DNA of 32,000 nucleotides from contig CAPYID010000012.1 of NCBI GenBank assembly GCA_948739805.1, forward strand, positions 1-32,000, read 5' to 3'. The notes beneath the pieces were generated by a model, which did no database searches, had not been told where the DNA came from, and saw only the letters and a list, made by a program, of their open reading frames with translations. Source of the DNA: an uncultured Clostridia bacterium. Lineage in GTDB: Bacteria; Bacillota; Clostridia; TANB77; CAG-508. Below are positions 7,514 through 9,483 of the stretch, one piece after another; within the stretch, counting starts at the first letter, position 1, and the number at the start of each line of letters is the position of its first letter. The translations under genes and the position numbers were made by a program.

Positions 7514-8821
7514 ATGCTATTAGAATTTAAAATGAGTAATTTTAAATCTTTTAGGGAGGAAATGGATTTTAAAATGACACCAGTTTCAATAAAAGATTTA
7601 GAATATAGTTTAATAACAAAAGAAGTTAAAGGAAAAGAAATAAAAGCATTATCTTCTGCAGCCATATATGGACCAAACTCTGCTGGCAAAACTAATATAA
7701 TTGGTGGTATGGAAGTGTTCCGTTCTATAATATTAAATGGAAACATTAAGAATAAGGAGAATATTACTAGTCCTAATATAGCAGCAAATAAACTAGAATT
7801 AATACCTAATATTGATAATGATGAAAAAGAACCAGTTTCTTTTTATATAAAGTTTGTAACTCAAGATATGATTATAGAATTTAATTTATCTATGGAATTA
7901 GGAACTTTTCTTGATTCCGAATATAATAGAAAAATTATAAATGAAGAATTATATATAAATAATGATTTAATATATAAGAGAAATGATAGTTTAAAAATTG
8001 GAAAAATTGAAGTAATAAAAGATTATCTGATAGATGAATTTTCAAAAGATACAGCAGAAAGAATAGCAAGTACTAATCTAGACAATAAAGAGCTATTGTT
8101 CAATGGAATATTTAAGACTTTATATAGTAAAAGGATATTTGATATCATTTATGAATGGTTTAAAGATAAGTTTAAAATTGTATATCATACAGATATGATA
8201 CAATATTCACCAATTATATCATCAGATAATGAAAAAAATAAATATTATATTGATAAGGATTTAAATAAAGCTGTAAAAGATTTTGGGTTAACATCAAAAC
8301 AAATTGCATATCCAGTAAATGAAAATAAGGATCAAATAGAACCTTTATCAGTAATTGATTGGAAAGACGGTAGTGTGATATTACCAGCAGAAATTTTTGA
8401 ATCTTTTGGAACTATTAGATTTTTAAATATTTTTCCAATGATATTAATGACAATAGATAATGGAGCTACTTTAGTTATTGACGAATTAGATGCATCTATT
8501 CATCCTATGGCGATAATGAATATTATTAATATTTTTCATAATGATGAGATAAACATAAAAGGTGCACAATTGATTTTTAATACACATAATCCAATATTTT
8601 TAAATAACGCTTTATTGAGAAGAGATGAAATTAAATTTGTTGAAAAGGAAGAAAAAGGAAGTACACATTATTCTCTATCAGACTTTGGAACTAATGGAGA
8701 AAACGGAGTTAGAAATAAAGAGGATTATATAAAGAATTATTTTGTCAATAAATATGGAGCAATTAAAAATATTGATTTTTCTGAAATTTTTATGAATAAA
8801 TTGGAAAGGGATAATAAATGA
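7514..8821 (+). CDS. ABC/SMC-like AAA ATPase (AAA_15/AAA_21-type, OLD/AbiLi/AriA-like ATPase component)
   Basis: The N-terminus MLLEFKMSNFKSF is typical of this family. Walker A GPNSAGKT is at 7670-7693, Walker B LVIDELDASIHP follows, and the H-loop FNTHNP is present, with a roughly 270-aa insert between Walker A and B. The stop overlaps the next start (ATGA at 8818-8821). Confidence 0.8.
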   Translation: MLLEFKMSNFKSFREEMDFKMTPVSIKDLEYSLITKEVKGKEIKALSSAAIYGPNSAGKTNIIGGMEVFRSIILNGNIKNKENITSPNIAANKLELIPNIDNDEKEPVSFYIKFVTQDMIIEFNLSMELGTFLDSEYNRKIINEELYINNDLIYKRNDSLKIGKIEVIKDYLIDEFSKDTAERIASTNLDNKELLFNGIFKTLYSKRIFDIIYEWFKDKFKIVYHTDMIQYSPIISSDNEKNKYYIDKDLNKAVKDFGLTSKQIAYPVNENKDQIEPLSVIDWKDGSVILPAEIFESFGTIRFLNIFPMILMTIDNGATLVIDELDASIHPMAIMNIINIFHNDEINIKGAQLIFNTHNPIFLNNALLRRDEIKFVEKEEKGSTHYSLSDFGTNGENGVRNKEDYIKNYFVNKYGAIKNIDFSEIFMNKLERDNK

Positions 8822-9483
8822 AAAAAAAGATATGTAATCAATATTATTTCTCTGTAGAGGGCGAAACTGAAAAATGGTATTTTGAACATTTGCAAAAATT
8901 AATAAATAATACAGACGACATACCATTTAAAGTCAGTTTTCATCTACAGATAGGTAAATCTATTATTAGTAGAGCAAAATCAATACCAGCACTATATGAA
9001 TCAACCAAAGTATTCCATATTTGTGATTATGAGAGCAATGATGAAAGTCATGTAAAACAATTTAATAAGGTTTTAGAAGACTTAAAAAATGTAAAAGAAA
9101 TAAACGATAATATTGAATATAAATTAGGATATAGCAATTTTTCATTTGATTTATGGATTATTTTACATAAAAGGCAACAAATAGGCTCAGTAAATCATAG
9201 AAAACAATATGTGGATGGAATTAATAAAGCTTATAATGAAAAGTTTCAGTTTATAAATGATTACAAAGAAGAAAAGAATTTTAAAAGAATACTATCAAAA
9301 ATAAGTTTGAGTGATGTTATTACAGCAGTAAACAATGGAAATGAGATTAGAAAGAAAAATGAACAATATTCAAAAGATAATTATAGAAAATATGGTCAAT
9401 TTGAATATTATACGGAAAATCCTGATATGACAATAAATGAATGCGTTGAGCAGATATTAAAGGAATGTGAAGCAATAAAATAA
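8818..9483 (+). CDS. RloB-like (Toprim-like, AbiLii-type) protein, partner of the upstream ATPase
   Basis: N-terminal YYFSVEGETEKWYF (EGETE at 8857-8871), ICDYES, and SNFSFDLWIILH match the RloB-family signatures (EGxxTExxYF, acidic D.D/E, SNPCFELWLLLH) as I recall them. It is translationally coupled to the ATPase. Confidence 0.75.
   Translation: MKKKICNQYYFSVEGETEKWYFEHLQKLINNTDDIPFKVSFHLQIGKSIISRAKSIPALYESTKVFHICDYESNDESHVKQFNKVLEDLKNVKEINDNIEYKLGYSNFSFDLWIILHKRQQIGSVNHRKQYVDGINKAYNEKFQFINDYKEEKNFKRILSKISLSDVITAVNNGNEIRKKNEQYSKDNYRKYGQFEYYTENPDMTINECVEQILKECEAIK

Follow-up and report, generated by a model that had tools for sequence, protein, structure and literature searches.

The DNA examined here is a 32,000-nucleotide stretch from an uncultured Clostridia bacterium (assembly GCA_948739805.1, contig CAPYID010000012.1, positions 1 to 32,000), which in its whole length we call the window. 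It raises the question of what a pair of overlapping genes, for an ATPase and a RloB-family protein, is doing inside an element that splits the spore coat gene cotJC. The pair belongs to the AbiL family and is the sole cargo of a non-phage element in cotJC. We consider it probable that it is an anti-phage/toxin cassette, that it would act in a manner similar to the PARIS system, and that the element would be excised in the mother cell. The loci and contigs used for comparison are designated by L numbers.

The two-gene cassette

The cassette consists of the following parts.

7514-8821, + strand: abiLi-like gene for a Rad50/SMC-type ABC ATPase, 435 aa (Pfam AAA_21, PADLOC AbiLi)
8818-9483, + strand: abiLii-like gene for a RloB-family, Toprim-like putative nuclease, 221 aa (Pfam RloB, PADLOC AbiLii)
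7417-7494, + strand: promoter region, conserved in all aligned AbiL cassettes, the stand-alone ones included
7417-7431, + strand: TGCA-N7-TGCA, upstream of the -35
7439-7444, + strand: -35 TTGACT, part of the cassette promoter
7462-7467, + strand: -10 TATAAT, part of the cassette promoter
7478-7483 and 7489-7494, + strand: pair of palindromic TTGCAA boxes, 11 bp apart, located after the -10 and before the ribosome-binding site
9508-9555, + strand: intrinsic-terminator-like hairpin and T-run that end the cassette

A previous reading, made from the sequence only, had described the two open reading frames (ORFs), their ATGA coupling and a number of motifs, all of which were found as stated. The ATGA at 8818-8821 is the start of the partner gene overlapping the stop of the ATPase gene. 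The ATPase contains GPNSAGKT (residues 53-60), a signature-like SFGT (297-300), VIDELD (321-326) and FNTHNP (355-360), and the partner contains EGETEKWYF (14-22), DYES (70-73) and SNFSFDLWIILHK (106-118). The same reading had taken the pair for an AbiL-like ATPase with a RloB partner and had proposed searches with hidden Markov models as a check, and these are positive for both proteins. The ATPase matches Pfam AAA_21 with an E-value of 1.2e-24 (88 bits, cut-off 27) and PADLOC AbiLi with 2.3e-70 (235 bits), while its second-best PADLOC model, AriA, follows far below at 2.2e-23. The partner matches Pfam RloB over its full length (9.6e-14, 52 bits, cut-off 31.5) and PADLOC AbiLii with 1.3e-12. 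NCBIfam has no specific model for either protein. By its family profiles, the pair is classed as an AbiL/RloB-class ATPase plus RloB operon.

Walker A, Walker B and the H-loop are intact and invariant across the ATPase homologues, and in the partner the residues E14, G15, E18, D70, E72, G104, Y105, N107, H117 and K118 are invariant. Both cassette genes are under purifying selection, with ratios of nonsynonymous to synonymous substitution rates (dN/dS) of 0.12-0.17 (0.13-0.17 for the ATPase). The family is of fair, though not enormous, size: a word-index search let through more than 5000 relatives of the ATPase, and the partner has 476 relatives, with 556 representatives at 50% identity among 1.84 billion clusters. 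The two genes are always found together, at 42-81% identity, be it in cotJC elements, in stand-alone loci or in viral contigs. Against the PLSDB plasmids, tblastn gave 163 weak matches for the ATPase, at no more than 31.5% identity and with no Lactococcus among the 40 of 163 listed, and no match for the partner.

The cassette also has its own transcription signals, as had been claimed. The promoter TTGACT-17-TATAAT (7439-7467) agrees with the consensus at 11 of 12 positions and is the best sigma-70-type match of the region; from these features, it is predicted to be a strong promoter of the constitutive type. In an alignment of the 150 nt upstream of ten homologous cassettes, stand-alone ones among them, the TGCA-N7-TGCA element and the paired TTGCAA boxes are conserved together with the promoter (window, L011, L012, L014, L022, L029, L034, L100, L101 and L103). 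This suggests an operator, which may serve some regulator or autoregulation. At the other end, the hairpin has a 17-bp stem (9508-9549) with a folding free energy of -17 kcal/mol and a z-score of -3.9, and none of 200 shuffled sequences folds as well. A simple consensus scan found no terminator downstream of the cassette, because the stem is A+T-rich, although folding reveals the hairpin. Since the promoter and the boxes are conserved among the cassettes, the mobile unit comprises the promoter, the two genes and the terminator.

The AlphaFold model of the ATPase, with a mean confidence (pLDDT) of 78.6, matches Rad50/SMC ABC heads in Foldseek (E 8e-7, probability 1.0), and also a chain of the retron-Eco7 complex and the Thermus OLD protein 6p74. 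The latter is likewise the best match of the ATPase family profile among the sequences of the Protein Data Bank (PDB; E 0.0076), and the only one when the single sequence is used (E 0.086). For both proteins, profile searches outdid the single-sequence searches of the PDB, and a match of the partner to APC in the single-sequence search was rejected as spurious. The model of the partner (pLDDT 93) has strands that alternate with helices, among them strands at residues 6-13, 38-45, 63-71 and 99-107; E14 and E18 follow strand 1 and D70-x-E72 closes strand 3, as expected of a Toprim-like site. Its top Foldseek matches include the C-terminal regions of OLD proteins (6nk8, 6njw and 6njv), with E-values of 7.5e-3 or worse and template modelling (TM) scores of 0.39-0.43. 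The remaining matches are mostly generic Rossmann-like folds, such as lumazine synthase and PTS IIA, which leaves the OLD regions as the only specific, albeit weak, ones. A profile of 37 RloB-family members has AriB, the PARIS nuclease, as its best PDB match (E 0.035), in an alignment that pairs VEG with VEG, CDyE with CDRE and LGYS with LGHS. The resemblance to OLD and PARIS that the sequence-only reading had noted is borne out weakly, by the match of the ATPase model to OLD heads and by the AriB and OLD matches of the partner just given.

These results allow the pair to be compared with known systems. AbiL (AbiLi/AbiLii) of the Lactococcus lactis plasmid pND861, as modelled in PADLOC, is likewise a two-gene operon in which an ABC/Rad50-like ATPase is followed by a RloB/Toprim-like protein. 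The likeness is judged by the PADLOC profiles, of which the AbiLii one is matched in part (positions 27-98 of 170), and AbiL is located on a plasmid, whereas the present cassette resides in the chromosome of a Clostridium-like gut bacterium, as part of a serine-recombinase element. PARIS shares the split ATPase and Toprim arrangement; its AriA model matches the ATPase, though far below AbiLi, and its AriB is aligned with the family profile of the partner in the catalytic motifs. Its effector, however, is a DUF4435/AriB protein of ca 310 aa, while the partner here is a RloB protein (PF13707) of 221 aa that matches no PADLOC model for AriB, reaching it only by profile against the PDB. With no AriB-type partner, the pair is not classed as a member of PARIS. 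The OLD nucleases (P2 Old; class 1 OLD, PDB 6p74 and 6nk8) also combine an ABC ATPase head with a Toprim-like catalytic domain. The present pair is not a class 1 OLD, its domains being split over two ORFs; in addition, its acidic motif is DxE instead of DxD, and the TM score for the nuclease is ca 0.4. Finally, the AAA antitoxin/TOPRIM_OLD toxin pairs found with NetFlax in Clostridium algidicarnis and Streptococcus agalactiae (PMC10440598) have the same two-domain pairing, and it is by domain pairing alone that they are likened here.

The element and its empty site in cotJC

The boundaries of the element and the neighbouring cotJ genes are as follows.

6860-7380, - strand: 3' part of cotJC, a spore coat gene of the Mn-catalase family (Pfam Mn_catalase profile 62-198)
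7366-7380, no strand: left 15-bp repeat CTAATTCTTCTGTAC, att core (repeat search, sister-lineage breakpoint)
7386-7398, no strand: element-internal arm GCTGTCGTTTGAA, inverted partner of the arm at 11576-11587, recombinase half-site of attP
11576-11587, no strand: element-internal arm CAAACGACCTCC, partner of the arm at 7386-7398
11595-11609, no strand: right 15-bp repeat, att core (repeat search, sister-lineage breakpoint)
11595-11823, - strand: 5' part of cotJC (Pfam Mn_catalase profile 1-67)
11796-12116, - strand: cotJB, upstream in the cotJ operon (Pfam CotJB in gene calls of identical contigs)
12113-12478, - strand: cotJA, upstream in the cotJ operon (Pfam CotJA in gene calls of identical contigs)

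The element is an insert of 4229 bp with four genes, and it splits cotJC; in Bacillus subtilis, the cotJ genes form a mother-cell (sigma-E) operon. The window contains two copies of the 15-bp direct repeat CTAATTCTTCTGTAC and no more, a number that none of 100 shuffles reached. When one copy of the repeat and the intervening 4214 bp are deleted, an uninterrupted, in-frame Mn-catalase/CotJC of 244 aa is obtained. The true coding sequence of cotJC resumes at the att core; the listed ORF 6860-7432 enters the element by 52 nt. A sister lineage carries exactly this empty site: its CotJC is intact and 97% identical, the flanking DNA agrees with the window at 92-95% identity, the alignment ends at 7380 and restarts at 11595 with the 15 bp in common, and the exact sequence predicted for attB is found there. 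The cotJC element of the sequence-only reading is thus real. Its further claim that the pair is the only cargo also stands, as nothing but the two cassette genes lies between the left att copy and the backbone formed by a 45-aa ORF and a recombinase. Scans of the window for Rfam families and tRNAs found nothing.

A comparison of the split with the intact cotJC gives a dN/dS of 0.058, and the two halves contain no internal lesions. The low ratio means that the split gene is not decaying.

Two contigs consist of the element only, namely L179 (Logan, 4273 bp) and L180 (ENA, 4324 bp), from different samples and different assemblers. On both sides, they end 30 bases (k-1, with k=31) and 55 bases (k, with k=55), respectively, into the flank plus core. 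Since such ends match the branch of an assembly graph between a filled and an empty site, both alleles co-occur in those samples, which implies either a strain mixture or excision, both being compatible with the observation. We have also considered these contigs as circularised elements, but this was rejected, as they are linear, att-bounded graph edges. When the Joint Genome Institute (JGI) metagenomes were scanned for exact copies of the attP junction predicted for the circle, none was found, a result that is uninformative because the species occurs mainly in the ENA and Logan data.

The arrangement resembles that of skinCd (in sigK), SP-beta (in spsM) and gin (in gerE), which are also inserted within a mother-cell sporulation gene and have a large serine recombinase, a small candidate recombination directionality factor and short direct repeats, with in-frame restoration of the gene. 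The window element shows the insertion with direct repeats, the in-frame restoration and a recombinase of its own. The known elements, however, measure 15-134 kb, compared to 4.2 kb and four genes here, and the present backbone differs from them in its cassette-like exchange of cargo, its two orientations and its cotJC target. The closest analogue is gin, a non-prophage element with a restriction-modification (R-M) system, which demonstrates that a non-phage element with defence cargo is possible (PMC5595907). The window element is, like gin, a non-prophage sporulation-gene intervening element, but a much smaller one. As for the target gene, cotJC has so far only been listed as an integration locus, by Abe 2013, as cited in 10.1101/2021.11.22.469490, and for Laceyella (10.1101/2022.02.25.481979). 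Our literature search returned no paper on an AbiL cassette in such an element, nor on a modular family of cotJC elements.

Backbone, crossover site and exchange of cargo

We now consider the part of the element that would move the cassette.

9561-9568, + strand: conserved CATACATA box, candidate mother-cell (sigma-E/K-type) -10, upstream of the 45-aa ORF and at the cargo/backbone boundary
9586-9723, + strand: 45-aa ORF, candidate recombination directionality factor, conserved directly upstream of the recombinase
9798-11402, + strand: large serine recombinase, 534 aa, TTG start (Pfam Resolvase, Recombinase and Zn_ribbon_recom; PHROG integrase 2e-93)
11497-11517, no strand: remnant of the recombinase-proximal att arm of the opposite-orientation type (TCTCAAACGACTTCATTTTGG), from sequence comparison

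A scan of one genome per GTDB species gave 79 loci with relatives of the recombinase (37-93% identity). In most of those with enough flank, cotJC fragments directly adjoin the recombinase, as seen by tblastn with the window proteins. Viral contigs of 30-55 kb (IMG/VR: L105-L113, L120 and L122) have a terminal recombinase, 38-50% identical, that adjoins a cotJC broken at the same residue, and from their sequences we take them to be prophages targeting cotJC. The shared CotJC residue places the recombinase in a clade of cotJC-targeting integrases that includes prophages. The element itself is not a known phage, since blastn against the phage collection matches only the N-terminal part of the recombinase, to integrases of Clostridium tetani, Paenibacillus and Terrisporobacter phages. 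Judged by these sequence comparisons, the backbone targets the same cotJC codon in dozens of species of gut Clostridia and in prophages, with varying cargo.

In nearly all loci with a recombinase of at least 77% identity, counting those whose DNA reaches upstream of it, the 45-aa ORF is found directly upstream, 62-91% identical. It has no family match in Pfam, NCBIfam and PHROG profile scans, and its dN/dS is 0.06-0.20. Both recombinase and 45-aa ORF are intact, and both are under purifying selection, as are all other parts of the element. The box GCATACATATT, called the CATACA box in the following, lies 8-10 nt upstream of the ribosome-binding site of the 45-aa ORF, is kept whatever the cargo, and is similar to the -10 of CATA type that mother-cell sigma factors use. 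No full promoter for sigma-E or sigma-K could be assigned, since conservation is limited to the -10-like box and the -35 region varies with the cargo. In Clostridium difficile, the skin directionality factor gene CD1234 has a sigma-E promoter, from which transcription starts 14 bp from the start codon (PMC5025042). On account of the conserved CATACA box and of its similar position, we propose that the 45-aa ORF is the directionality factor.

The crossover dinucleotide can be assigned, from the junction sequences, as the probable GA of the second Glu codon in ...GTEEL... of cotJC. The recombinase end adjoins the 5' part of cotJC in the window, L018, L029 and L042, and the 3' part in most other loci. 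The junctions of L012 (co-directional) and L029 (convergent) share only the GA of the second Glu codon of TEEL, meaning that both types use the same crossover dinucleotide with the same polarity relative to cotJC. Different target sites for the two orientations were therefore rejected. In the reconstructed attP, the inverted arms TCAAACGAC...GTCGTTTG are roughly centred on the GA, and according to blastn the two types differ by an inversion of the element body (ca 7411-11512) with respect to the att core region. The same GA with opposite orientations of the body was also seen when window positions 7381-7411 and 11512-11594 were compared with L011, L022 and L029.

The cargo is modular and is exchanged on the conserved backbone. 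Identity of the sister lineage L018 to the window amounts to 92.4% from position 9575, at the CATACA box, onwards across the recombinase, attR and cotJ genes, while L018 positions 1-1915, corresponding to window 7381-9575, hold three unrelated small HTH-like genes instead of the AbiL cassette. The homology between the two breaks at the CATACA box upstream of the 45-aa ORF. AbiL cargo recurs in L011-13, L017, L022, L029 and L034 (73-81% identity). A Mrr-nSTAND3 protein (STAND NTPase; PADLOC PDC-S73) occurs as cargo in addition to AbiL. Other cotJC elements hold AbiQ/ToxN, an rRNA adenine methyltransferase, or a sortase with a surface protein; a copper ATPase, a two-component system and sugar-nucleotide enzymes are assigned solely from reading of the translations. 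Because non-defence cargo is found on the same backbone, the platform is not defence-specific, although toxin and Abi modules recur. The description of the element as a minimal defence island in the sequence-only reading thus fits the window element itself, but it cannot be extended to the backbone.

The AbiL cassette, in turn, is not confined to the backbone. It occurs with the same promoter at ordinary chromosomal sites without a recombinase (58-73% identity), and in viral contigs (42-50% identity). What is new here is this occurrence without a recombinase, together with the recurrent targeting of cotJC by one backbone with variable cargo. One recombinase-free cassette, 73% identical (L014-L016, 8001-9968), lies between spoIID and a cluster of M23 peptidase, spoIIID and mbl genes; its location in a neighbourhood of sporulation genes may be a coincidence.

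A second interruption of cotJC is found ca 35 codons downstream of the first in L019 (8857-13221), L027 (2981-6206), L028 (4478-9119), L032 (2264-5156) and L043 (9045-12832), and ca 70 codons downstream of it in L034 (8953-13365). These second-site elements are 3-4.6 kb long, have a large serine recombinase of a different family (509-526 aa) and carry small cargo (Fic/DOC, ParE, Phd/ParE, metallophosphoesterase).

Proposed mechanism and alternatives

The mechanism that we propose is modelled on PARIS, on P2 Old and on those AAA/TOPRIM_OLD toxin-antitoxin pairs that have been validated. In PARIS, made up of AriA and AriB, the latter is a tRNase that is released on binding of the trigger. P2 Old acts as a tRNase (PMC12445682), the pairs of AAA antitoxin and TOPRIM_OLD toxin have been validated by neutralisation assays (PMC10440598), and AbiL is grouped with PARIS, its relatives and those of PARIS being proven anti-phage systems (PMC13064643). 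By analogy, the cassette would be transcribed from its own strong constitutive-type promoter, with translational coupling of the two genes, and the AbiLi-like ATPase would hold the nuclease inactive and sense infection. Upon a phage trigger, the AbiLii-like nuclease would be released or activated and would cut tRNA or other nucleic acid, such that the infection is aborted. The backbone of recombinase and 45-aa factor would integrate the element at the fixed GA within the TEEL codons of cotJC. The same two proteins would excise it in the mother cell during sporulation and so restore cotJC, while the element would stay in the forespore chromosome. The analogies thus suggest both an anti-phage activity with a PARIS-like mechanism and an excision specific to sporulation.

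Some observations weigh against this proposal. For AbiL of Lactococcus itself, the mode of action has yet to be established (PMC13064643). The partner matches the AbiLii profile in part, and its likeness to Toprim, OLD and AriB proteins is weak (Foldseek E 7.5e-3, TM 0.39-0.43; AriB E 0.035), while residues 360-417 of the ATPase are poorly modelled by AlphaFold. Sister elements on the same backbone hold non-defence cargo. The JGI metagenomes yielded no attP (circle) junction, and expression of the 45-aa ORF in the mother cell rests on a -10-like CATACA box without a clear -35. In addition, a frameshift in spoVT is fixed in the lineage, and regulated excision may be moot.

It is useful to describe this lesion. 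The spoVT gene (13416-13971, + strand) has a 1-nt insertion, with AAAGAACGGAGAC compared to AAAGAGGGAGAT in sister lineages, by which the frame shifts after ca codon 30. Besides the window, six independent assemblies of the lineage (L001, L002, L003, L005, L007 and L008) have the insertion, and L018 and L096-L098 lack it. Being fixed in the lineage, it indicates that sporulation, and hence regulated excision, may be impaired here. This also qualifies the idea of the sequence-only reading that the location of the element would cost nothing in spore coat assembly. Another interrupted gene in the window encodes an alpha/beta-hydrolase (5263-6072, + strand), in which an in-frame TGA separates the ORFs 5263-5934 and 5944-6072 of the same frame; the position is Cys in the homologue of L030, and the TGA may be a nonsense mutation.

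One alternative is that the pair is mainly an addiction module that stabilises a selfish mini-element by post-segregational killing, with phage defence being secondary or absent: if the excised, non-replicating circle were lost, the ATPase antitoxin would decay and the nuclease would poison the cell. This is in line with the behaviour of AAA plus TOPRIM_OLD pairs as toxin-antitoxin systems in neutralisation assays (PMC10440598), with the cassette being the only cargo of a minimal element, and with the toxin-antitoxin and Abi toxins of other cotJC mini-elements (ToxN/AbiQ, and ParE, Phd/ParE and Fic/DOC at the second site). However, the same cassette with its promoter sits stably at non-mobile chromosomal sites without a recombinase, which addiction to an element leaves unexplained, and the AbiL and PARIS relatives are proven anti-phage systems (PMC13064643). 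We therefore judge a predominant addiction role to be unlikely, although the two roles are not mutually exclusive. Another option considered was that the insertion is fixed and no longer excises, cotJC being simply inactivated in a lineage that is losing sporulation, such that the location has no regulatory meaning. The spoVT insertion, found in every independent assembly of the lineage and not in sister lineages, would agree with this, as would the in-frame stop in the nearby hydrolase gene and the finding that C. difficile can do without one of its CotJC paralogues (PMC11222575). On the other hand, purifying selection acts on both the recombinase and the 45-aa ORF (dN/dS 0.07-0.2), neither of which is damaged, the halves of cotJC are free of internal lesions at a dN/dS of 0.058, the att repeats are perfect, and the att-bounded element-only contigs indicate co-occurring filled and empty sites. 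Taken together, this makes a dead insertion quite improbable.

The last option is that the pair is a RloA/RloB-type accessory of an R-M locus and not an independent system. The RloB family was indeed named from genes inside type I R-M loci of Campylobacter (PMC10440598, PMC13064643). However, none of the four genes of the element is hsd-like, its flanks are cotJ genes, and no hsd genes of the RloAB type I R-M arrangement were found in or adjoining it; the stand-alone homologues are also without adjacent R-M genes. Because of this gene content, we exclude the accessory role as extremely improbable, and the AbiL-family cassette with anti-phage or toxin function remains the reading that we favour.

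The interest of the locus comes mainly from the picture at the level of the family. Tentatively, cotJC could be a dedicated landing pad for minimal serine-recombinase elements that act as exchangeable cassettes, although we hold this wider proposal to be possible rather than probable. The att site, the CATACA-box promoter, the 45-aa factor and the recombinase would be constant, and the cargo would be swapped at a fixed boundary, with either orientation accepted at the same GA. The gene would be shared with second and third elements at other codons that have unrelated recombinases, and the cargo would be rich in toxin and abortive-infection modules (AbiL, AbiQ, ParE, Fic). The spore coat gene might then keep defence and addiction cassettes in store, to be passed on vertically and gated by sporulation.

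The element itself is a compact, easily cloned test case, of ca 2.1 kb from promoter to terminator, for the still uncharacterised AbiL/RloB class, and its family supplies new sets of serine integrase, attB and attP, possibly with a very small directionality factor. It also shows that a four-gene element, hidden in a gene needed only by the disposable mother cell, can have such a cassette as its entire payload. More generally, it appears that cotJC has been targeted for integration again and again, at more than one site and with cargo that can be swapped, which bears on how small defence and addiction cassettes spread among spore-forming gut bacteria.

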